From positions 1,517-65,516 of the forward strand of contig CAZFWX010000001.1 in NCBI GenBank assembly GCA_964522695.1: a DNA stretch of 64,000 bases, written 5' to 3'. Position numbers and translations under genes: made by a program. Source of the DNA: an uncultured Desulfobacterales bacterium. Lineage in GTDB: Bacteria; Desulfobacterota; Desulfobaccia; Desulfobaccales; 0-14-0-80-60-11. Of the stretch, positions 5,328 through 64,000 are shown piece after piece (the stretch's first letter is position 1; the number at the start of each line of letters is the position of its first letter). The notes under the pieces were generated by a model. The model was not told the origin of the DNA, did no database searches, and was given only the letters and a program-made list of their open reading frames with translations.

Positions 5328-6713
5328 CTATTGGTTGAGACCGGTTTCCCGATCGCTCAGATTGTATTTCTGCACCAGATGGTACAGCATGGACCGGCTG
5401 ATTTTCAGCGCCTTGCTGGCCAGTTGGGCGTTGCCATGGAAACTGCGCAACACCTTGGCCACCAGCCTGGCCTCGAATTCAGCCTTGGCTCCCTTGAGCC
5501 CCCCGCCGTTTAAGATGGGTTCCGGTTCCAGCTCATCCAGGGACAGGCCCAGGTGTTCCGGACCGATCCAGGGCCCTTCCGCCAGCACCACCGCCCGGCG
5601 GACCCGATTGACCAATTCCCTGATATTGCCGGGCCAATGATGACCCTGGATGACCTGCACCGCCTTGCGAGTAAAGCCGCTGATCTCCCGTTCCACCTTG
5701 CTGGCGTACTGCTTCAAAAAGATGTTGGCCATGATCAGGGAATCCATATCCCGGTCTTTCAAGGGCGGGAGGTGCATATGGACCACATTCAGGCGGTAAA
5801 ACAAGTCTTCCCGGAACCGTGATTTTTTCGTCATCTCCTCCAGGTCGCCGTTGGTGGCGGAAAGAATCCGTAAGTCCACCCGGATGGGATCACGGCCGCC
5901 GACCCGGGTAAAGGAGAATTCCTGCAGGAAACGCAGCAGTTTGACCTGCAACTCCAAGGGCAGTTCTGCCACTTCGTCCAAAAACAGCGTGCCCCCGTGA
6001 GCCCTTTCCACCATGCCGACGGTGGTGCGGTAGGCCCCGCTAAAGGCCCCTTTCTCATACCCGAAGAATTCCGATTCCAGCAATTCCCGGGGGATGGCGC
6101 CGCAGTTAATGGGGACGAAAGGCCCCTTGGCCCGCAGGCTCCGTTCGTGAATGGCCCGGGCCACCATTTCTTTGCCGGTGCCGCTGGCCCCGGTGATCAG
6201 AACCGCCACATCCGAGGGCGCCACCTTGCGGATCATCTGGAAGGTTTCCCGCATGGCCGGGCAGGTGCCGATCATCTCTTCATCCTGTTCCTGCCCGAGC
6301 AAACATTCCGGAAAGTTTTTACTTTCAAACCCCAGAGGCTTGCGGCAACTGGGACACTTTCCCTTTAACTGTTGATGCAGCTCCTTGCCGCAGAAGGGAC
6401 AATCTTTCAGATCCCTGACCTTGGGGAGAATGACGCGTTCCCAAATGAGGGACCTCGATTCGCTGTCTAGATCTAAGAATTCAACTGCGCTGCCGACTTT
6501 ATTGGTGCGCACCACCCGCACCAGAATCTCTTGCTCTGGACCGTTGGGAACCGGCTTGAATTTCAGGTTCGCCAACGAATTAAGATCGGGAATAAAGGAA
6601 CTTTTGAGGAAAGCACCCCCCAACCCCAGGTCCGAAATCGTCCCTTCGCCCGTCAGGCCCGGACCGAAAAGGATATAGGGATAGCTTACCGGGACTCGTG
6701 GAGAATTTCGCAT
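5328..6713 (-). CDS. Sigma-54-dependent transcriptional activator with N-terminal PilZ-like domain and a CxxC..CxxC zinc ribbon
   Basis: N-terminus has R-N-S-P-R (RxxxR) followed by ISDLGLGGAFL (D-x-S/G-x-x-G), which is PilZ-like. Zinc ribbon CPFCGKE..CPSCRK. AAA+ motifs GASGTGKE and ESEFFGYEKGAFSGA (GAFTGA variant). C-terminal Fis-type HTH. Confidence 0.9.
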   Translation of the reverse strand: MRNSPRVPVSYPYILFGPGLTGEGTISDLGLGGAFLKSSFIPDLNSLANLKFKPVPNGPEQEILVRVVRTNKVGSAVEFLDLDSESRSLIWERVILPKVRDLKDCPFCGKELHQQLKGKCPSCRKPLGFESKNFPECLLGQEQDEEMIGTCPAMRETFQMIRKVAPSDVAVLITGASGTGKEMVARAIHERSLRAKGPFVPINCGAIPRELLESEFFGYEKGAFSGAYRTTVGMVERAHGGTLFLDEVAELPLELQVKLLRFLQEFSFTRVGGRDPIRVDLRILSATNGDLEEMTKKSRFREDLFYRLNVVHMHLPPLKDRDMDSLIMANIFLKQYASKVEREISGFTRKAVQVIQGHHWPGNIRELVNRVRRAVVLAEGPWIGPEHLGLSLDELEPEPILNGGGLKGAKAEFEARLVAKVLRSFHGNAQLASKALKISRSMLYHLVQKYNLSDRETGLNQ

Positions 6714-8249
6714 ATCCTATCTCTTCGCGTCAGTGACTCTCGGTGATTTTACAATTTACCGCTGTATTGTTCGGCAAGAATTCTTTCCACCCTCAACTGC
6801 TGCAATGTGAGGGATTTGACAAGGAACATGCTCAAAAAATCGTCTAAAATCATCACCTCCCCTTTCTTGCCGCCAACAGATGGAAAGGTCCGCGCCTGCC
6901 GCCGGCATGTATCGAAAGCACTTTCCCCATTTACCCCTAAGGCAAATGAGAAAATACGGTATGGGGTGAGAGTTTGCTTGCCATCGTGTCATCTCCGGCA
7001 AATTCCCTGCCGGAACTTCACTGTAATGAGGCGCCACATCCTTCGGGCGAACTGTCGCTGCTTCTCCGGCCTAACCTGCCCTCTGGCAGTCTGGAGAATT
7101 TTCCAGCCAGTTAGGCCCAGCATTGTTGAGATTGGAAAGGTACATCAGCAAAAGACGTCCCGCACTGGTTAACCTGTAAAAATCCATTCAGATCGGTTCT
7201 CGCCGCTGGTTTTTTCAGGCCAGCATATCTCAAATTGTGAACGGCTTCGGATAGCTCTGTGTCAAATCCTAACCCTCCGGTTCACAACTGCTGCTCAAGT
7301 ACGGTCTCGCTCAGGGAGGGGATGGTGTTCTTAATTTTGTGCCTATTTAAAGATAAGAATTTACAAAAAATAAAAAAGCCGGGAATACCCTGATTCTTAT
7401 ATTCGTTTTTCCTGACCAGCGAGAGAAGGAGTTCAGAGATGGACCTATCTCCTTATAATCTCTAAATTATTTATCTTACATAGGCAGGCTCCGCGCTCCT
7501 TTCCGGGGGCCGAAAAAAGAACATGGGTGAAAAAATTTTTGCAAACATCAGCCATTTTCTAAATTTTTCGCAATCCGGCAAATGACATGAAAGCTCCTTC
7601 CCCTTTTTTCCCCAGCTTATTTGCTTCCACAACACCATGAACTTGAGATAACCGTAAGAAATCAGAGGATTAGGATGCGTTCCGCATCTTGCGCACATTC
7701 TCAAATTTTAAGGGTAATAGTAGCACTTGTGCAAGGAACGTCTATCCATTGGAATGACCATCTTTTAATAGTTAAAAATGACCATTTTTATCTTTCCTAC
7801 TTGGTGGACGTTTACTTGGCGGTAAGCTCCGGGCGAGTTGACAATGCGTCTCGGTTACAGCGGGAATGGTTGCAGTCTATCTCCCCATAGACCGATTGGC
7901 GAAGGAGTGAAAGGCATGGCGACCTTTCGAGATAAAGATAAGAATGCCTGGCAGGGTCGTCAACCGGACGGCATGGCTCGCCTGAGAAAATTTTGACTCT
8001 CCATCTACCCTGGGGAGGGTGATTCCGGTCCGGGTGTTGAGAGACGCATACCGGCTTTCTTGGAGGTTGGGCCTTGGTCGCGGGGGTATCCCGAGGGTGA
8101 CAACCTGTGGCCGCAAAGAGGGGATGGGGGCGAAGCGCGCCGGGCGGGGGGAGGTCTTCCTCTTCCCACAGGCCAGGAAATCATCAGGAGGTGGTTCCAG
8201 GGCGGCTCTCCGGGAAGCCCTGGCTAACCGGAATCTGCCTCAAGCCTCT

Positions 8250-53984: not shown

Positions 53985-54413
53985 GATACCGGTCTCCTCG
54001 TCCCCGCGAAAAGATTGCTTGGTTGCCCCTTAAGCCAATTACCAGGCATTGGCGCCGATGCTGCCCCTTACCTGATGACCATTTCCGCACCTTTCCTAAA
54101 TTGGGGTTTTCCTTGAGGGCTGGGTGAAGATCTCTGCTCCTGTTCAGGAAATCAACCATATTTTGACGCTGCACCATGAATGTAAGCCTTGAGCCCTGCG
54201 GTCTTTCAGGGAACCCGATTGGTTGGCAGCCGGGATCCGGGTCCGCAAGGTCAGATTGTTTGCCATATTAAAAGCAAAAAATGGGCCAAGGCCAGGGCGG
54301 CTATGAGGTGACTCGGGGGTATGACATAGGCAACATATTGAATGCCTAAAGTTTTCCAAAATATCAGGCCCGGCCGGAGGAATGCATTTTCAGGAAAAAC
54401 GGGAAAACACCTT

Positions 54414-55469: not shown

Positions 55470-55766
55470 CTACCCCCCGATGAATTTCCCCAGCACGTCA
55501 ACCATTTTGTTCATGCGGCTGAAGAGTTCTTCGGGGTCGGGTTTTTCGCTGATTTCGCTGTAGCACTTGAGGAGGTAGGCCTTGAGCACCAGGGCGCCCG
55601 CCGATTTGAGAGCAGACTGCACCGCCCGGACCTGGATGAGGATGTCTTCGCATTCCTTGCCGTCAACGATCATGCCCTGCAGGCCGCGGACCTGCCCCTC
55701 GATCTTTCGCAAGCGGGACACCACATTCCGCTGCATCTGCTCCTTGGTCTGCTCCATCAGTACCAT
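55470..55766 (-). CDS. csoR: CsoR/RcnR/CstR-family (DUF156) transcriptional repressor
   Basis: Start placed at MVLMEQTKE. RLRKIEGQVRGLQGMI signature. Two Cys residues (..GKECEDIL.. and ..LLKCYSE..) and no obvious W-X-Y-Z His. Confidence 0.8.
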   Translation of the reverse strand: MVLMEQTKEQMQRNVVSRLRKIEGQVRGLQGMIVDGKECEDILIQVRAVQSALKSAGALVLKAYLLKCYSEISEKPDPEELFSRMNKMVDVLGKFIGG

Positions 55767-55889
55767 GGTTCCCCCTGTTCTTTTTGAGTCAGGCGCCGGC
55801 CGGCTTGCGCCCGTCGTTGACCACCGCACACTGAACCCAATGTCCACGGCATTGGAGTACAGCGAAGAGGACAACCGGGTCGGTTGTCC

Positions 55890-56944
55890 CTAGATGTTGG
55901 TCCCGGTGGAGGTGACTTTGCTGTTGAAACCGTGGACGTACCCACGTTGATGATGAACCGGTCGGTGATCTCATAGCCCGCCCCCACGCTGAGATGATGC
56001 TCCGTGACGGCCGGGAAGCCGATGTTCCGGAAGGTTTCAAAGTAGTATTGGGGAATGTATTGGCCCTGCAGGTATACCGGGGTGAGGCCGTTGTCCCCCC
56101 GGTGCTCCTTGACGGGATTATTGCCATAATTATACCCCGCCCGCAAGGACAACTTGGGAATGGGTTTATACTGCACGCCGAAGTTGACCATAATCTGATC
56201 TTGCCAGTCAAAGTCGCCGTAACCGGCCGCGCCCGACCAGTTGAGCCATTTGATGTTGGCCTCCAGGAGCAGCTGCTCGGGGAAGGGCTCATAAGCCACG
56301 CCAAAGCCCAAGGTGTGCGGGGATTCCAGCACCAGATCGTCCCGGCGGCCGTTTTGATCGAAGTCCAGGACCTTATTGAGGGCGAAGCCCAGGGACAGCC
56401 AGGGCAGCGGCTGATAGGCCACCGTGGGCGCGAACTTCATGATCATGAGATCGGTGAAGGCGCCCGCGGTCAGAGGGGGGCCCATGGGGAAGAAGGCCCG
56501 GTCCAGGGGGGTGTCCAGGTAATTGACCCCCTGCCCCGAGATGCCGTAAGCGCCGAAGCCGAAGCGCCATCTAGGCAGTTCCGCGAAGTTCCAGGATATA
56601 CCCATAGTGGGTATTTGTTAAATGCGATGCTCACTGGTGGATTGGCAGAACTGGGGGCCGTTCGTGAACGAGGCCCGCACCGTGGGCATGAACAGCGTGC
56701 CGGCGAAGTCCACCTGGGAACTGGGGCAGAAGGATCCGAAGCACATGCTGGCGGGATTGGCAAAGACCGCGCTGATGGCGTCCTGGGGCGCGGCGATGCC
56801 GACTCCGCCCATGGCCCGGGAAATGGGGCCGACGCCGATGAGATTATCGCCGTTGGTAGCCTGTGAGAAGGAAGGCACCATCACCAGGGCCAGGATGGCC
56901 AGGAGCCAGGGGAGCCGGCGAGTCGCCATAACCGCATACCTCAT
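55890..56944 (-). pseudogene. FadL/TodX-family outer-membrane transport porin interrupted by an in-frame TAA and a probable 1-nt frameshift
   Basis: The N-terminal ORF (signal peptide, NGDNLIGVGPISRAMGGVGIA..) and the C-terminal ORF are in the same frame, separated by TAA at 56618-56620. Near 55938 the barrel-like sequence continues in another frame (..INVGYVHGFNSKVTSTGTNI*), while the open frame runs into csoR. Confidence 0.6.
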
Positions 56945-57149
56945 TAATTATTAACTCTACCCCAGTTTGGTATTTTTCCCCCTTTCTGTCAAGAAATTTT
57001 TTCCAAGAATTTGCTCCGGCAATTTCCCCTTCCCGTCATCCTACCCTACCACCTTTGCCCCTGCGCCTTGCAGTTTGGCTGGCGGCGTCCAGTCGGCCAC
57101 ACATTCCGGGTAATTTTTTCTTCCCGGCGTCCTTAACCTTTGGCTTTCC

Positions 57150-57166
57150 TGCGGCAAAATGCCGCA
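57150..57166. promoter_or_regulatory. Perfect inverted repeat TGCGGCA-aaa-TGCCGCA; candidate enhancer (UAS) for a sigma-54 activator
   Basis: Lies about 180 bp upstream of the -24/-12 element. Confidence 0.35.
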
Positions 57167-57204
57167 AAGGGGAGTTTTTCTCCCTTGTTGATAATAACTA
57201 ATCA

Positions 57205-57217
57205 AATCAATGAGTTG
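57205..57217 (+). promoter_or_regulatory. IHF-consensus match AATCAATGAGTTG (WATCAANNNNTTR) between the candidate UAS and the sigma-54 promoter
   Basis: Exact match to the consensus as I recall it. Sits in an AT-rich tract. Confidence 0.35.
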
Positions 57218-57330
57218 ACAATTATTTTCGATCTTTGCCGGTAATTACGCCACCTTTCCCCTCCCCTCCCAACCATCAGATTTATGGCTAATTAACTATT
57301 TTTCCTAATATTTTCGTCTCAATGACTGCC

Positions 57331-57346
57331 AGGCACGCCCTTTGCT
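57331..57346 (+). promoter_or_regulatory. Sigma-54 (-24/-12) promoter aGGCACGcccTTTGCT
   Basis: GG at 57332-57333 and GC at 57344-57345, giving the exact 12-nt register. Matches TGGCACG-N4-TTGCW at every position except the first T. The ATG at 57370 follows, preceded by RBS AAAGGAGAG. Confidence 0.6.
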
Positions 57347-57369
57347 CATAAAGAGGCCCAAAGGAGAGA

Positions 57370-57804
57370 ATGGCGAAAGTCGGCGCAAACAGGATGGGGC
57401 GTGCAACGAAAGGTGGTGAGGCCATGGCGACATGCAGCACGGTTCTGATTGCCGAACCCGGGGATCATCTGACCGGCGGCCTGCGGCTGTGGGTGCGCGA
57501 CAACGGGCATCAGCTTCTCACCGTGGACAAATTCACGGATCTCCTCATCACCTTGCAGCGGGAAAAGGTCAGCGTTCTGGTCATGGACGTGCGCCTCTCC
57601 GAGGGACATGGGTATGAAGCCATCTCCATCATCAAGGGGTTGTGTCAGAAACTGCCCATCATCATCTGCGCCGCGGAAAACAACCCGGAACAGGAGGCCC
57701 TCATCCGCCAGAAAGGCATCTTCTATTACCACGTCACGTCGTTCGGCCTGGAAGAACTGATGATGGCCATTTCCAACGCCCTGGGGCGGGCCGCGCACGT
57801 CTGA
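57370..57804 (+). CDS. Stand-alone CheY-like receiver-domain protein
   Basis: VLIAEPGD..VLVMDVRLSEGHGYEAISIIK..PIIICAAE receiver pattern. Confidence 0.7.
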   Translation: MAKVGANRMGRATKGGEAMATCSTVLIAEPGDHLTGGLRLWVRDNGHQLLTVDKFTDLLITLQREKVSVLVMDVRLSEGHGYEAISIIKGLCQKLPIIICAAENNPEQEALIRQKGIFYYHVTSFGLEELMMAISNALGRAAHV

Positions 57805-57815
57805 AGGGAGACCCC

Positions 57816-58685
57816 ATGCAACTGGAACCCAAACTGGCAAAAGGGGAATTTGTCATTCTGGCGGAGATGGAGCCTCCCAAAGGGGCAGACGTCTCCGAAA
57901 TGGTGGGCCATGCCCTGGCCGTCAAAGGCCGGGTGGACGGCTTTGTGGTGCCGGAGATGAGCAGCGCGGTGATGCGCTTGAGCTCCCTGGGCGGGGCCAT
58001 GCTCCTGGCCAACCGGGGCTTGACCTCAGTGATGCAGGTCTGCTGCCGGGACCGCAACCGCCTGGCCCTGCAGGCGGACCTCCTGGCCGCCAACGCCCTG
58101 GGCATAGAGAACGTCATGGCCGTGACCGGCGATGACATCACCTTTGGCGACCACCACAAGGCCCGGCCGGTGAATGACCTGGACCTGATGGAGCTGCTGG
58201 GGGCCCTCAAGACCCTCATGTCCGGCCGGGATCTGGCCGGCATCGAGCTCAAGGGCGCGCCCCGGTTCTTCGTGGGGGCCCTGGCCAACACCGGAGCCAA
58301 GGCCCTGGACCTGGAGCTGGCCGACCTGGACCAGAAGGTGGCCGCAGGGGTGCGCTTCTTTCTGACGCCCCCGGTCTTTGACCTGGCCGTCCTGGAACGC
58401 TTCCAGAAGCGCCTGGCCGGCGCCGGCGCCTATCTCATCCCCACCGTGCTCCTGCTCAAAAGCGTGGGCATGGCCCGGTACCTGGACCGCCATATCGAGC
58501 AGGTCAGCGTTCCCGCCGCGGTCATCGACCGGCTCCAGAAGGCCCCGGAGCGGGTGCGGGAGTGTGTGGCCATCGCCGGGGAACTGGTGGCCGGCGTCCG
58601 GGATATGGGGCTAAGCGGCGTCAACCTGTCCACCATCGGCTGGGAAGACAAACTCCCGGCCGTGCTCGCGGCCGCGGGTCTGTAA
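57816..58685 (+). CDS. metF: Methylenetetrahydrofolate reductase (MetF, acetogen/sulfate-reducer type)
   Basis: FVILAEMEPPKG..CRDRNRLALQADLLAANALGIENVMAVTGDD..FFLTPPVFD motifs. RBS GAAGGGAG. Confidence 0.85.
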   Translation: MQLEPKLAKGEFVILAEMEPPKGADVSEMVGHALAVKGRVDGFVVPEMSSAVMRLSSLGGAMLLANRGLTSVMQVCCRDRNRLALQADLLAANALGIENVMAVTGDDITFGDHHKARPVNDLDLMELLGALKTLMSGRDLAGIELKGAPRFFVGALANTGAKALDLELADLDQKVAAGVRFFLTPPVFDLAVLERFQKRLAGAGAYLIPTVLLLKSVGMARYLDRHIEQVSVPAAVIDRLQKAPERVRECVAIAGELVAGVRDMGLSGVNLSTIGWEDKLPAVLAAAGL

Positions 58686-58710: not shown

Positions 58711-61700
58711 ATGGCAGAATCACAGATGCAATCCAATCCTTCCACCCCTCCCACCGGTGCGGTCATGGTGGTGGGCGCGGGTATCGCCGGGGTGCAGGCG
58801 GCCCTGGACCTGGCCAAATCCGGCATTTTCGTCCACCTGGTGGAGAGCAAACCGGCCATCGGCGGGGTCATGGCCCAACTGGACAAGACCTTCCCCACCA
58901 ACGACTGCTCCATGTGCATCCTCTCGCCCAAATTGGTGGAATGCGGCCGCCATCTGAATATCCAGATTCATACCTTAACCGAAGTGCAGGACATCAGCGG
59001 AGAGCCGGGGCATTTCACCGTCAGCCTGACCAAGCACCCCCGCTATATCGACCCGGCCAAATGCACCGGCTGCGGCGACTGCACCAAGGTCTGCCCGGTG
59101 CTCATTCCGGATGAGTTCAACCAGGGACTGGCGGACTGGAAGGCCACCTACCGCCTTTATCCCCAGGCCATCCCGGCCGCCTTCGCCATCAAGAAGCTGG
59201 ACCGGGCGCCCTGCACTCTCACCTGCCCTGCGGAAATCAACGTCCAGGGCTACGTCCAGCTCATCAAGATGGGCAAATATGAAGAGGCGGTCAGGCTCAT
59301 CATGGAGCGCCTGCCGCTGCCCGGCGTTCTGGGCCGGGTCTGCCCGCACCCCTGTGAGGACCAGTGCCGGCGCAAGGACTTGGATGAACCCGTTTCCATC
59401 TGTTCCCTCAAGCGCTTCGCCGCAGACCAGGTGGATCTCGCGGCCATCAATCCGCCGCCCGTGGAGGCCCGGCCGGAGAGAATCGCCATCGTCGGCTCCG
59501 GCCCCGCGGGGCTGGCCTGCGCCTACCATTTGGCCCTTAGGGGCTACCGGCCCACCATCTTCGAGGCCCTGGACAAGCCCGGCGGCATGCTGCGGGTGGG
59601 CATCCCGGACTACCGCCTGCCCAAAGACATATTAGATAAGGAAATTGACAATATTCTGCGCCTGGGGGTGGAGCTCAAAACCAATACCGCCCTGGGCCGG
59701 GATTTCACCCTGGACGGCCTCTTTGACCAGGGCTACCAGTCAGTTTTCCTGGGTCTGGGCTGCCACCTGGGCAAACCCCTGGGCATCCCCGGCGAGGACG
59801 CGGACGGCGTGGTCCAGGGCGTGGATTTCCTGCGGCGTCAGAGTCTGGGCCAGCCCCAGCCCGTGGGGAAGCGCCTGGCCGTGGTGGGCGGCGGCAACGT
59901 GGCCATCGACGTGGCCTGCACCGCCCGGCGCCTGGGGTCGGACGTCACCATCGTCTACCGGCGCTCCCGGGAGGAGATGCCCGCGTTCCACCACGAAGTG
60001 GAGCAGGCCCTGTGCGAAGGCGTCAAGATCGTCTATCTGGCCGCGCCCCTGAAAGTCGTCGCCGGTCCTGACGGCAAGGTCACGGGGCTCTTGTGCCAGC
60101 AGATGGAGCTGGGCGAGCCCGACGCTTCGGGCCGGCGCAAACCGGTGCCCATCCCCGGCCAAGAGTTCGAACTGGCCGTGGACATGGTGGTGCCGGCCAT
60201 CGGCCAGGAAGCGGCGCTAACGGCCTTCCAAGACTGGGGCGTCAACGTCAGCAAGTGGGGCACCATCGAGGTGGACGAGGTCAGCTACCAGACCTCCCGG
60301 CCCGGGGTCTTCGCCGCGGGCGACGTGCACACCGGCCCCTGGATCGCCATCGAAGCGGTGGGGGGCGGCATCGAGGCCGCAGAATCCATTGACCGCTACC
60401 TCAAGGGCCTGGACCTCACCGCGGGCCGGGTCCTGGGCAAGGAGGCCCACCAGCGCTGGGCCGACATCCCCAAGGACGAATACGGCCAGTTGCGGGAGGA
60501 AATGCCCACTCTGCCGCCCGAGACCTCCTGCGCCTGCTTTGACGAAATTGCCCTCGGCTTCAGCGAAGCCCAAGCTCAAAAAGAGGCGGCCCGCTGCCTC
60601 AATTGCGGCATCTGCTCCGAATGCATGCAGTGCGTTATCGCCTGCCAGGCCAATGCCGTGGACCATACGCAACAGCCGGAGACGCTGAACGTGGAGGTGG
60701 GTTCCGTGATTCTGGCGCCGGGATTCAAGACCTTTGATCCGGCGCGCATGGCCACCTACGGCTACCTGACCCACCCCAACGTGGTCACCGCCCTGGAATT
60801 TGAGCGCATCTTATCGGCCAGCGGCCCCTTCGAAGGGCACCTGGTGCGGCCCAGCGACCACAAGGAACCCAAAAAGATCGCCTGGCTGCAGTGCGTGGGC
60901 TCAAGGGACGTCAAGACCCACTCGTATTGCTCGTCGGTATGCTGCATGTACGCCATCAAAGAGGCGGTCATCGCCAAGGAGCACGCCGACTACCCCCTGG
61001 ACTGCGCCATCTTTTTCATGGACCTGCGCACTTTCGGCAAGGACTTCGAGAAATACGCCAACCGGGCCCAGGATGAAGCCGGGGTGCGCTTCATCCGCTC
61101 CCGCATCCACAGCATCGACCCGGCCCCGGACGGAGGTTTGGCCCTGCAATACCTGGATGAAACCGGGGCCATTAAGACGGAAGACTTCGACCTGGTGGTC
61201 CTGTCCGTGGGCATGGAGATCACCGAGGACGTGAAAAGGCTGGGCGCCAAACTGGGGGTGGAGCTGAACAGCCACGCCTTCGCGTCCACCCATCCCTTTG
61301 CGCCGGTGGCCACCTCCCGGCCCGGGGTGTACGTCTGCGGCGCCATGGCCGGCCCCAAGGACATCCCAGAATCCGTCACCCAGGCCTCCGCTGCGGCCGC
61401 AGCCAGCAGTGCGCTCCTGGGCCAGTCCCGCTGGACCCTGACCCGCACCCGGCAGATCCCCGAACCCAAGGATATAACCGGCGAGCCCGCCCGGGTGGGC
61501 GTGTTCGTCTGCGACTGCGGCATTAACATCGCCAGTGTGGTGGATATTCCCAGGCTGTCCGAATACGCCCGGGGTCTGCCCCATGTAGTCTTTGTGCAGG
61601 AGAACCTCTTCACCTGCTCCCAGGACACCCAGGTGCAGATGCTCAAGGCCATCGAAGACCACAATATCAACCGGGTGGTGGTGGCCGCATGCACGCCCCT

Positions 61701-63150
61701 GACGCACGAGGCCCTGTTCCGGGAAACCCTGCTGGACGCGGGGCTGAACAAGTATCTCTTCGAGATGGCCAACATCCGCAACCAGGACTCCTGGGTGCAT
61801 ATGCATGAGAAGGAGGAGGCCACGGAGAAGGCCCAGGACCTGGTGCGCATGGCCGTGGCCCGGGCCACCCTGCTCAAGCCCCTGGTGGAGACGCCTCTGA
61901 CCATCAATCAGCGGGCCCTGGTGCTGGGCGGCGGGGTGGCGGGCATGAACGCCGCTTTGAACCTGGCGGATCAGGGTTTTGAAACCATCCTGGTGGAAAA
62001 GGAGCGGGAACTGGGGGGTCTCGCCCGCCGGGTGCACCATACTCTCGAAGGCATGGACGTGCAGGCCTACCTGGACGGCCTCATCGACCAAGTGAAAAGC
62101 CATGAGAAAATCCAGGTCCTCACCCAGGCCCTGGTGGTGGGCTACAGCGGCTACAAGGGCAACTTCGTGACGGAAGTCCTGGTGGGCCCCGGCATGTATG
62201 AACGCAAAATCGAGCACGGGGCCACGGTCATCGCCACCGGCGCGCAGGAGTACCGGCCCAAGGAATTTGCTTACGGCAGCCATCCCGGCGTCATGACCCA
62301 GCTCGAACTGGGCCAGATGGTGCACGAACAGAAGGATAAAGTGGCGGGCTGGCAGCGGGCCTTCTTCATCCAGTGCGTGGGCTCCAGAAACGAAGAGAAC
62401 CCCAACTGCAGCCGCATCTGCTGCCAGGGCGCGGTGAAGCATGCCCTGGAACTCAAAAAGCTCAACCCGGTCATGGAGGTGGTGGTGCTCTACCGGGATA
62501 TGCGCACCTACGGGCTCCAGGAGGACTACTATCTGGAGGCCCGCAACCAGGGGGTGCTCTTCTCCCGCTTCGATCTGGAGCGGCTCCCCCAGGTGAGCGA
62601 AGCCGGCGGGAAGCTCTCGGTGCAATTCCTGGACCACGTCCTGCAGATGCCGGTGAGCCTGCCCGCGGACGCGGTCATCCTGAGCGCGGCCACGGTGGCC
62701 GGCGATAACGAGGAGCTGGCCTCGCTGCTCAAGGTCCCCCGGGGCTCGGAAGGCTTTTTTATCGAAGCCCACGCGAAACTCAGGCCCGTGGATTTCTCCA
62801 GCGAGGGCATCTTCCTGGCGGGCAGCGCGCACAGCCCCAAGCTGGTCACGGAGAGCATCGCCCAGGCCCTGGCTGCGGCCTCCCGGGCCGGGGCGTTTTT
62901 AGCGGACACCAGCCAGACCATCAGCGGCGTCACTGCCTGCGTCACGCCGGACCGCTGCGCCGCCTGCCTCATCTGTGTGCGGGTCTGCCCCTTCAAGGTG
63001 CCGCAGATCAACCAGGATAATGTTTCGGAGATAAACCGGGCCCTGTGCCAGGGGTGCGGCATCTGCGCCTCGGAGTGCCCGGCCAAGACGATCCAGGTGT
63101 CCCATTACGAGGACGACCAGATTACCGCCAAGATCAAGGCGCTGTTTTAA
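58711..63150 (+). CDS. hdrA: Giant HdrA-like flavoprotein (1479 aa): two HdrA modules with an inserted GltD/NfnB-like NAD(P)H-binding module (HdrL-type)
   Basis: FAD motif VVGAGIAGVQAALDLA. Several CxxCxxCxxxCP clusters. GltD-like block PCTLTCPAEINV..GRVCPHPCEDQC..IAIVGSGPAGLACAYHL..VVGGGNVAIDVA. Two HdrA cores (CVGSRD..YCSSVCCMYAIK and CVGSRNEE..CSRICCQGAVK). Confidence 0.9.
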   Translation: MAESQMQSNPSTPPTGAVMVVGAGIAGVQAALDLAKSGIFVHLVESKPAIGGVMAQLDKTFPTNDCSMCILSPKLVECGRHLNIQIHTLTEVQDISGEPGHFTVSLTKHPRYIDPAKCTGCGDCTKVCPVLIPDEFNQGLADWKATYRLYPQAIPAAFAIKKLDRAPCTLTCPAEINVQGYVQLIKMGKYEEAVRLIMERLPLPGVLGRVCPHPCEDQCRRKDLDEPVSICSLKRFAADQVDLAAINPPPVEARPERIAIVGSGPAGLACAYHLALRGYRPTIFEALDKPGGMLRVGIPDYRLPKDILDKEIDNILRLGVELKTNTALGRDFTLDGLFDQGYQSVFLGLGCHLGKPLGIPGEDADGVVQGVDFLRRQSLGQPQPVGKRLAVVGGGNVAIDVACTARRLGSDVTIVYRRSREEMPAFHHEVEQALCEGVKIVYLAAPLKVVAGPDGKVTGLLCQQMELGEPDASGRRKPVPIPGQEFELAVDMVVPAIGQEAALTAFQDWGVNVSKWGTIEVDEVSYQTSRPGVFAAGDVHTGPWIAIEAVGGGIEAAESIDRYLKGLDLTAGRVLGKEAHQRWADIPKDEYGQLREEMPTLPPETSCACFDEIALGFSEAQAQKEAARCLNCGICSECMQCVIACQANAVDHTQQPETLNVEVGSVILAPGFKTFDPARMATYGYLTHPNVVTALEFERILSASGPFEGHLVRPSDHKEPKKIAWLQCVGSRDVKTHSYCSSVCCMYAIKEAVIAKEHADYPLDCAIFFMDLRTFGKDFEKYANRAQDEAGVRFIRSRIHSIDPAPDGGLALQYLDETGAIKTEDFDLVVLSVGMEITEDVKRLGAKLGVELNSHAFASTHPFAPVATSRPGVYVCGAMAGPKDIPESVTQASAAAAASSALLGQSRWTLTRTRQIPEPKDITGEPARVGVFVCDCGINIASVVDIPRLSEYARGLPHVVFVQENLFTCSQDTQVQMLKAIEDHNINRVVVAACTPLTHEALFRETLLDAGLNKYLFEMANIRNQDSWVHMHEKEEATEKAQDLVRMAVARATLLKPLVETPLTINQRALVLGGGVAGMNAALNLADQGFETILVEKERELGGLARRVHHTLEGMDVQAYLDGLIDQVKSHEKIQVLTQALVVGYSGYKGNFVTEVLVGPGMYERKIEHGATVIATGAQEYRPKEFAYGSHPGVMTQLELGQMVHEQKDKVAGWQRAFFIQCVGSRNEENPNCSRICCQGAVKHALELKKLNPVMEVVVLYRDMRTYGLQEDYYLEARNQGVLFSRFDLERLPQVSEAGGKLSVQFLDHVLQMPVSLPADAVILSAATVAGDNEELASLLKVPRGSEGFFIEAHAKLRPVDFSSEGIFLAGSAHSPKLVTESIAQALAAASRAGAFLADTSQTISGVTACVTPDRCAACLICVRVCPFKVPQINQDNVSEINRALCQGCGICASECPAKTIQVSHYEDDQITAKIKALF

Positions 63151-63160
63151 GGAGTGGCCC

Positions 63161-63613
63161 ATGGACGCGTTCCGACCGAAAATCCTGGCCTTTTGCTGCA
63201 TGTACTGAGCGTACTCGGCCGCGGACCTGGCAGGTTCGATGAGGCTGCAGTACCCCCCGGACATCCGCATCATTCAGGTGCCGTGCACCGGCAAGGTGGA
63301 CATCATCCACCTGCTCACGGCCTTTGAAGAGGGGGCGGACGGGGTTTTCGTGGCCGGTTGCCAGGAGGGCGATTGCCACTTCCTGGAAGGCAACCTGCAT
63401 GCCAAGAAACGGGTCCAACGGGTCAAGGAGATCCTGGAGAAGGTGGGCCTGGGCGCGGGCCGGGTGGAGATGTTTAACCTGTCCGCAGGCATGGGCCCCC
63501 GCTTTGCAGAAATCGCCCGGGAGATGGACGCGCGTATCAGGGAGATGGGCCCCAGTCCCATCCGGAAGGCCAAGCCCTCCCTCCCCCAGGCCGCCACGGA
63601 GGTGCGGGTATGA
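63161..63613 (+). CDS. mvhD: MvhD-like (methyl-viologen-reducing hydrogenase delta subunit family) protein with in-frame UGA at 63206-63208; probable selenoprotein
   Basis: ATG at 63161, with RBS AAGGAG 7 nt upstream. MDAFRPKILAFCCMY-UGA-AYSAADLAGSMRLQYPPDIRIIQVPCTGKVD is in frame with the track ORF 63239-63613. The UGA sits where the family has the second Cys of the F-x-C-x-W-C-S-Y-x-G-A-D motif. Confidence 0.7.
63222..63238 (+). other. Candidate SECIS-like hairpin 14 nt after the mvhD UGA (CGGACC-uggca-GGUUCG)
   Basis: 6-bp stem (one G-U pair) folded by hand. Confidence 0.3.
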
Positions 63614-64000
63614 TCAGGGCAGTGGGAAAACCGTTGGAAGAAGTGGTGGAAATGGTCCGGGAGCACCCCCGGGTGCTGGTGGCGGGCTGCGACGGCTGCG
63701 TCACCGTGTGCGAGGCGGGCGGCTTGAAGGAGGTCAAGGTGCTGGCCAGCGCCTTGCGCCTGTATTTCAACCAGGCCGAAGCTCCCAAGCAGATCGACGA
63801 AACCAGTCTCACCCGCCAGTGCGACAAAGAATACCTGGCCACCATCAGCGACAAGATTGACGGCTATGACGCCGTATTGTCCCTGGCCTGCGGCTGCGGC
63901 GTCCAGTTCATGGCGGATATGTACACCACCAAGCCCGTCTTTCCGGGGGTAGACACCACCTTTCTGGGCGTCACCGAGGAGCGGGGTCTGTACACCGAGC
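63610..64000 (+). CDS. metV: MetV (methylene-THF reductase C-terminal/zinc-finger domain protein), 3'-truncated by the window edge
   Basis: ATGA overlap with mvhD. VLVAGCDGCVTVCEAGG..LSLACGCGV Cys pattern. Confidence 0.75.
   Translation, partial: MIRAVGKPLEEVVEMVREHPRVLVAGCDGCVTVCEAGGLKEVKVLASALRLYFNQAEAPKQIDETSLTRQCDKEYLATISDKIDGYDAVLSLACGCGVQFMADMYTTKPVFPGVDTTFLGVTEERGLYTE

Follow-up and report, generated by a model that had tools for sequence, protein, structure and literature searches.

A predicted enhancer-dependent sigma-54 promoter conserved among sulfate-reducer relatives precedes a receiver-metF-hdrA-mvhD-metV operon

Classical examples of enhancer-dependent sigma-54 promoters that make use of IHF include Klebsiella nifH with its activator NifA, Pseudomonas putida Pu with XylR, and E. 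coli glnHp2 with NtrC. In Desulfovibrio vulgaris, the orp operons are co-regulated by sigma-54 and a cognate enhancer-binding protein (EBP), as a 2011 J Bacteriol study by Fievet and colleagues is reported to describe. A role for IHF at these operons has been reported as well. For the sigma-54 regulome of D. vulgaris Hildenborough, regulons were predicted by cross-genome comparison of promoters and EBP sites; many EBPs adjoin their target operons, among which are energy-metabolism genes, for example the ohc operon (Kazakov et al. 2015, PMC4641369). In this phylum, sigma-54 regulons are known to be very large and extend to energy metabolism (PMC4641369, PMC12316311). The account of the D. vulgaris regulome (PMC4641369) makes no mention of metF, methylenetetrahydrofolate or hdr, and our literature search found no paper linking sigma-54 to metF or hdr in these bacteria, although such a link may still be published. 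An enzyme module of the corresponding kind is the Moorella thermoacetica MetFV-HdrABC-MvhD complex (Mock et al. 2014, summarised in PMC6085437).

Here we examine the DNA ahead of a MetF/Hdr module in the window, by which we mean the whole 64,000-nucleotide stretch that was analysed. A first-pass annotation of this sequence had singled out a -24/-12 element, an exact IHF-consensus match in an AT-rich tract and a perfect inverted repeat, and had proposed that these place an operon beginning with metF under sigma-54 control. All three motifs lie exactly where that annotation had put them, and both the perfection of the repeat and the exactness of the IHF match within AT-rich flanks are borne out (Table 1). 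The comparisons reported below make it very probable that a genuine sigma-54 promoter, equipped with upstream activator sites, has been singled out here.

Table 1. Positions of promoter-region features and operon genes, counted from the first nucleotide of the window.
Feature	Position	Strand	Sequence	Description
Far-upstream conserved island	57105-57124	+	CCGGGTAATTTTTTCTTCCC	GGGTAA-type element inside; near-invariant in comparison with L083, flanks diverge
Inverted repeat	57150-57166	strandless	TGCGGCA-AAA-TGCCGCA (TGCGGCAaaaTGCCGCA)	Perfect, 7-nt arms; left half of block 1
Second palindrome	57169-57184	strandless	GGGGAG-TTTTT-CTCCC (GGGGAGTTTTTCTCCC)	Right half of block 1
IHF-consensus match	57205-57217	+	AATCAATGAGTTG	9/9 against WATCAANNNNTTR; inside AT-rich block 2
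Proximal block 3	57238-57254	strandless	CCGGTAATTACGCCACC	~78-94 nt upstream of the -24 GG; missed in the first-pass annotation
Sigma-54 core promoter	57332-57346	+		GG 57332-57333, -24 element; TTGC 57342-57345, -12 element
Predicted transcription start	57355-57359 (~57357)	+		Inferred from standard sigma-54 geometry, GC dinucleotide at -13/-12
Atypical receiver, first gene	57424-57804	+		126 aa; PF00072; alternative start 57370 gives 144 aa
metF (MTHFR family)	57816-58685	+		289 aa; PF02219, E 1e-26; starts 11 nt past receiver stop
hdrA-like fusion	58711-63150	+		1479 aa; inserted GltD/NAD(P)-binding module
mvhD	63161-63613	+		PF02662; ATG 63161; in-frame TGA 63206-63208 (selenocysteine)
metV-like (DUF5981/PF12225 family)	63610-64000	+		Cut by window end; 86% identical to 222-aa PF12225 protein of L084

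The operon is headed not by metF, as had been assumed, but by the receiver gene, with the other genes following at close spacing. The 347 homologs of the receiver recovered at E ≤ 1e-10 are mostly 125 to 128 aa long. Furthermore, in a comparison with the nearest relative (L083), which shares synteny with the window and encodes a receiver of 94% identity, the stretch from 57370 to 57423 carries two synonymous and five non-synonymous changes and looks non-coding. These observations speak against ATG 57370 as the start and make ATG 57424 the probable one. The distance of 24 nt from T57346 to ATG 57370 given in the first-pass annotation is exact as a measurement, but the operon's probable first start lies 78 nt beyond the GC. 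Farther along the operon, the in-frame TGA of mvhD stands in the motif FCCMY-U-AYSAADLAG; it is kept in nine loci, with Cys (CNWC) in three others, which indicates a selenocysteine-containing MvhD. A hairpin following this TGA is no stabler than shuffled sequence (z = -0.42).

The neighbours on the upstream side, both on the minus strand, encode a FadL/TodX-like outer-membrane protein and a CsoR-like repressor. The FadL/TodX-like gene (55757-56944) contains an in-frame TAA (56618-56620) that leaves ORFs of 108 and 282 aa, and an intact 417-aa gene occupies that place in L083; either the gene has undergone a nonsense mutation or is a pseudogene, or the TAA is an error of sequencing.

The putative promoter is situated in a non-coding intergenic region of 425 nt between divergent genes, where it faces the downstream operon. 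As the annotation had proposed, AGGCACGcccTTTGCT (57331-57346) resembles TGGCACG-N4-TTGCW, with agreement at 11 of the 12 specified positions. Within the window, however, a pattern of this kind carries little weight by itself: at no more than one mismatch it occurs once against 0.71 expected, and at least one match appears in 46 of 100 shuffles. The same is true of the other two motifs, with two IHF-pattern matches against 0.77 expected and 85 perfect inverted repeats (arms of at least 7, spacers of 0-6) against ~40 in shuffles, such that the inverted repeat on its own is statistically not significant within the window. Because no motif exceeds chance inside the window alone, we judged all of them by context and by comparison with other genomes.

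The annotation had also suggested a scan with a sigma-54 position weight matrix (PWM). We built such a matrix from 52 orthologous loci, leaving the window out, and ran it on the window, wherein the flagged site came first: position 57330 scores 17.4 bits and ranks first among ~128,000 positions, and the runner-up reaches 11.8 bits. Two weaker sigma-54-like matches, each at 10 of 12 positions and on the minus strand, are TGGCCCATTTTTTGCT (54273-54288) and CGGGACGTCTTTTGCT (7147-7162), the latter ~450 nt upstream of a PilZ-type EBP gene. A sigma-70 promoter on the plus strand was rejected, as no sigma-70-like site was found on that strand between 56500 and 57900. We likewise rejected a 5′ leader RNA or riboswitch, for which an Rfam search of 56900-57900 returned nothing credible. 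A Pfam scan found no RpoN among the RpoN-size ORFs of the 64-kb window; the window does encode an EBP with a Sigma54_activat domain, which suggests that the organism uses sigma-54.

For the comparison, a MetF-based scan with one genome per species yielded 80 loci from Desulfobaccales, Syntrophobacterales, Desulfobacterales and relatives. In 55 of these, metF is immediately preceded by the receiver gene, and the promoter test was carried out on the 53 loci whose upstream sequence extends to 450 nt or more. At a threshold of at least 9 of 12 positions, a GG..GC element of the GGCAC-N5-TTGC type is present on the plus strand between -130 and -50 from the receiver-gene start in 49 of the 53 orthologous loci, compared with a background rate of 0.028 per 100 nt (binomial P = 2e-76). 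Elsewhere in those 450-nt stretches there are just three matches on the plus strand and two on the minus strand. The family core reads GGCA(C/T)(A/G)-N4-TTGC(A/T), wherein the GG and the TTGC are fixed and the spacer and flanks vary. Where the receiver gene is absent, CGGCAC-N5-TTGCT precedes metF in 18 of 25 loci.

An alignment of the 53 sequences, which form 44 clusters at 80% identity, reveals four co-linear conserved blocks: a distal block, an IHF-like block, a proximal block and the -24/-12 core. The invariance of GG and GC in this alignment (A1) derives partly from the anchoring of the sequences, and the positional statistics given above are independent of it. The genes upstream vary between loci, and none of the related GTDB loci L001-L080 has a FadL-like neighbour. 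Thus, the blocks travel with the receiver-metF operon, and we rejected the view that they are a property of the divergent FadL-like gene. Judged by these alignments, the cassette is conserved in dozens of sulfate-reducer relatives. Sigma-54 control of the MTHFR/Hdr module, as put forward in the first-pass annotation, is strongly supported by phylogenetic footprinting and by the linkage of EBP genes in relatives described below. The annotation's description of this regulatory link as unusual did not hold, in that the link is conserved over at least three orders within the phylum.

The distal block (block 1) occupies 57150-57184 of the window and has the family consensus GGTAAAnTGGTAACAnATGnGGCATTTTTACCCAT. 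The window's inverted repeat aligns to the block 1 consensus CnGGTAAAnTGGTAAC, and information content upstream of the core peaks in the right half, which has the consensus GGCATTTTTACCC. Measured to the GG, the inverted repeat is 182 nt away, the second palindrome 163 nt, and the palindrome GTAATTAC (57241-57248), which lies inside block 3, 91 nt. As for the proposal that the repeat is an EBP site about 180 bp upstream, its position is that of the distal activator block, but the family consensus there is not that palindrome. In keeping with this, the window's block 1 scores -3.2 bits against the family PWM, the second-lowest value of the 53 (median 41.7). This score implies that the same EBP may bind only weakly there or that the specificity has changed.

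Such a low value is also what would be seen if the core were real and block 3 were the only enhancer here, with the repeat and the IHF match as decayed or incidental remnants of an ancestral distal block. The insignificance of the inverted repeat by itself fits this explanation, as does the finding that EBP sites in D. vulgaris lie mostly within 100 nt of the promoter (PMC4641369). The comparison with L083 points the other way. The islands conserved between the two genomes are the inverted repeat, the second palindrome, block 3, the stretch 57105-57124 and the -24/-12 elements; the inverted repeat is identical and the second palindrome differs by two substitutions, amid sequence that falls to roughly 55% identity around them. 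Moreover, the same palindrome, GCGGCAAAATTGCCGC, is found in L034 at the position of the window's repeat. GGYA-N4-TRCC dyads are concentrated at two fixed positions, ~-160 and ~-90 from the GG, with a density of 2.5 per kb compared with 0.13 per kb in the background, and the GGCA-N3-TGCC core of the window's repeat is one base shorter than this enriched dyad. These observations suggest that the repeat lies within a real, constrained element whose palindromic form appears to be lineage-specific.

Two further points concern this region. The palindrome at 57169-57183, the sole terminator-like call, was considered as a terminator and rejected, as its T tail is poor and there is no upstream plus-strand gene to terminate. 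The island at 57105-57124 did not align in the 53-locus alignment and is possibly an extra activator half-site.

The IHF-like block (block 2) lies downstream of block 1 and upstream of block 3, that is, between two activator-type blocks. Its family consensus, TATCAATAnGTTA, also fits WATCAANNNNTTR at the aligned position of the window's match. Among the 53 loci, this aligned position agrees with the IHF consensus at 7/9 or better in 75% of cases compared with 5% of control windows, and at 8/9 or better in 26% compared with 0.3%; these controls were not matched for AT content, and AT-rich DNA inflates IHF-consensus matches. The IHF site of the proposed UAS-IHF-promoter layout is a candidate whose position appears to be conserved in the family, but it does not directly precede the core promoter, and the corresponding IHF core in L083 reaches only 6/9, which also fits the explanation with block 3 as the only enhancer.

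Other elements are seen closer to the core in other loci. Eight of them (L012, L013, L018, L021, L023, L024, L027 and L077) have TTGTGATTTAATGCACTTA-like sequences ~20-40 nt upstream of the -24 GG that resemble Rex or CRP/FNR half-sites, whereas at that spot the minus strand of four others (L003, L004, L005 and L022) matches the IHF consensus perfectly instead. In the window, neither a TTGTGATTTAATGCACTTA-like sequence nor a minus-strand IHF consensus is present just upstream of the core.

The proximal block (block 3) has the family consensus CCGGnAAATATGCCnC. With 13.5 bits, the window's copy ranks fourth in the window and stands above the family median of 11.9, and 57232-57249 is invariant in L083. 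From this conservation, block 3 is probably a proximal activator site. A separate sequence, GTTTGGTATTTTTCCCCCTT (56965-56984), beside the start of the FadL-like gene, is among the top window matches for two matrices, with 11.8 bits for the right half of block 1 and 13.4 bits for block 3, and may be another family site or a chance occurrence. The above-median score of block 3 next to the poor score of block 1 is the pattern that a proximal-only enhancer would leave; given the near-invariance of the distal palindromes in L083, we regard that explanation as unlikely and favour a promoter served by both the distal and the proximal block.

The identity of the activator is suggested by gene linkage. 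In eight Syntrophobacterales-type loci, genes for a REC-PAS-HisKA-HATPase kinase and a REC-AAA+-HTH_8 EBP are located directly upstream on the same strand, and the stop codon of the EBP gene falls inside block 1. In 13 Desulfobacterales-type loci without the receiver gene, an NtrC-type EBP gene is divergent from metF. Desulfobaccales, Desulfobacca acetoxidans among them, have orthologs of the Syntrophobacterales EBP that are 72-75% identical and belong to the same gene cluster, which comprises hdrA, mvhD, metV, a second MTHFR, a canonical receiver, an ACT protein, a PAS kinase, a REC-PAS kinase and the EBP. There, a distance of ~8.6 kb separates the end of hdrA from the EBP and kinase genes, and the EBP gene is followed by a second module consisting of hdrC/B-like genes, hdrA (1500 aa), mvhD, metV and metF.

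This second hdr/metF module is preceded by a second copy of the cassette (11357-11566 in L087 and 11324-11663 in L088). Its block 1 scores 34-35 bits and overlaps the EBP codons LRVNW-stop; an IHF-consensus site, a block-3-like element and a sigma-54 promoter of 15.5 bits follow, and in L087 the IHF consensus between block 1 and the sigma-54 promoter is perfect. The physical tie between the EBP gene and block 1 in two orders assigns the enhancer to this REC-AAA+-HTH_8 EBP family. The activator is thus likely to be an NtrC-type EBP paired with a REC-PAS histidine kinase. No NtrC-type EBP is encoded in the 64-kb window; by analogy with the gene order in Desulfobaccales, the gene in this genome would be expected ~8-9 kb past the end of hdrA, just beyond position 64000.

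Two side observations relate to the signalling genes. Downstream of the first operon, L084 (16609-20381) and L087 (4210-10008) encode a CheY-like canonical receiver, an ACT-domain protein, a multi-PAS histidine kinase and a REC-PAS kinase, a gene set that suggests a multi-step phosphorelay to the EBP. In L025, L029, L032, L033, L037, L042, L053, L061, L070, L072 and similar loci, which are of Desulfobacterales type and have no receiver gene, a different putative enhancer palindrome, TATGCCA-N3/4-TGGCATA, is found upstream of metF, often in two copies and together with a divergent NtrC-type EBP gene and a CGGCAC-N5-TTGCT promoter.

The one EBP gene that the 64-kb window does contain encodes a PilZ-AAA+ protein (5328-6713, minus strand). 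The departure of the window's distal block from the family consensus leaves room for a different activator, and this protein, whose binding the first-pass annotation had suggested testing, could fill that role. We consider this very improbable. The gene is ~50 kb from the promoter, and the closest match to the repeat motif, a weak one with two mismatches, is inside its own coding sequence, with no copy in the DNA upstream. In addition, block 3 of the window retains the family motif, and in every relative with a linked EBP that protein is a REC-AAA+-HTH_8 protein tied to block 1.

The explanation that best accounts for these data, and which we regard as highly probable, is that an EBP-activated sigma-54 promoter at 57332-57346 drives the five-gene receiver-metF-hdrA-mvhD-metV operon. 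Proceeding from the motifs, their co-linear conservation and the linkage of EBP genes in relatives, we infer the binding and bending events, where transcription starts, and which EBP acts in this genome and where it is encoded. Sigma-54 RNA polymerase would form a closed complex at the core. A cytoplasmic REC-PAS histidine kinase would phosphorylate an NtrC-type EBP (REC-AAA+-HTH_8), and the phosphorylated protein would bind and oligomerise on GGYA-N3/4-TRCC dyads which, counted from the predicted start, lie at ~-200 to -173 in the distal block and at ~-111 in the proximal block. An IHF-type bend between both blocks, at the match at ~-146, would aid contact between EBP and polymerase. ATP-driven opening would then yield a transcript from ~57357 that encodes the atypical receiver, MetF, the HdrA-like protein, the selenocysteine-containing MvhD and MetV. 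The notion that the core is a chance match, of which 0.71 with up to one mismatch would be expected in the window, and that an unrecognised promoter of sigma-70 type drives the operon is hardly credible in view of the fixed position and strand of the element in 49 of 53 loci, its top PWM score in the window, the lack of a plus-strand sigma-70-like site in 56500-57900 and the EBP genes linked to the cassette in relatives.

The receiver that heads the operon has an unusual active site. Among 54 homologs, the phospho-acceptor Asp, equivalent to D57, is kept in all 54. Of the acidic pair, D12 is replaced by Glu and D13 by a non-acidic residue, which in the window is Pro; Ala mostly stands at T87, as it does in the window, and at K109 there is Lys, Asn or Thr, the last of these being the window's residue. 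The protein has the PF00072 fold, and since the full set of active-site residues is not present we classify it as an atypical receiver. We rejected a recent duplication of the EBP's REC domain as its origin, because the two share just 26% identity over 68 aa. Sources annotate this family of ~126 aa simply as a generic response regulator. The receiver could provide feedback on the relay or act as a partner of the enzyme complex.

A wider and more tentative reading, possible but doubtful as a whole, is that the two-copy cassette defines a dedicated MetF/Hdr regulon for the Wood-Ljungdahl pathway's methyl branch over much of the phylum, driven by a phosphorelay and with the atypical receiver in a regulatory role. 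The relay would comprise a PAS kinase, a canonical receiver, a REC-PAS kinase and the NtrC-type EBP. The atypical receiver, wherein the second acidic residue is missing and often the Thr and Lys as well, would not serve as a normal phospho-acceptor. It would either titrate the kinase or the EBP as feedback, or couple signalling to the MTHFR/Hdr complex as a subunit.

In complete-oxidising sulfate reducers and syntrophs, the control of the methylene-THF reductase/Hdr step, both in its direction and in its level, is poorly understood. The presence of a conserved two-component sigma-54 cassette before these genes implies that a specific signal switches the step, in place of constitutive expression, and the PAS kinase suggests that this signal may be related to redox state or to a metabolite. 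The cassette also points to particular proteins, namely the EBP of the cluster, its kinases and the atypical receiver, and it is carried by the cultured species Desulfobacca acetoxidans and Desulfonema magnum. In addition, its set of motifs offers annotators an aid for finding more members of the regulon.

To the extent that sequence analysis allows, we regard the sigma-54 core promoter as established. The finding is well supported, and the mechanism predicted for it belongs to standard sigma-54 biology. Like the classical promoters, this one has a GG-N10-GC core, dyad-type sites 80-200 bp upstream, an AT-rich element with the IHF consensus, and a predicted AAA+ activator of the NtrC family. 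It differs from them in that the IHF-like block lies between the two activator-type blocks rather than before the core, in that the first gene encodes an atypical receiver, and in that the distal block in relatives overlaps the stop codon of the activator gene. The D. vulgaris regulome belongs to the same phylum and was likewise predicted by cross-genome comparison. With the orp operons, the present operon would share the combination of sigma-54, a dedicated EBP and probably IHF over anaerobe-specific redox proteins in a sulfate reducer, whereas the genes, the EBP and its binding sites are different and the orp operons have no leading receiver gene. The likeness to the Moorella thermoacetica complex, as far as the summary of that work describes it, concerns the enzyme and not its regulation: both comprise a MetF, MetV, MvhD and HdrA module. 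The operon described here, however, encodes HdrA as a fusion of 1479 aa and a selenocysteine-containing MvhD, and the module is preceded by a receiver gene under predicted sigma-54 control.
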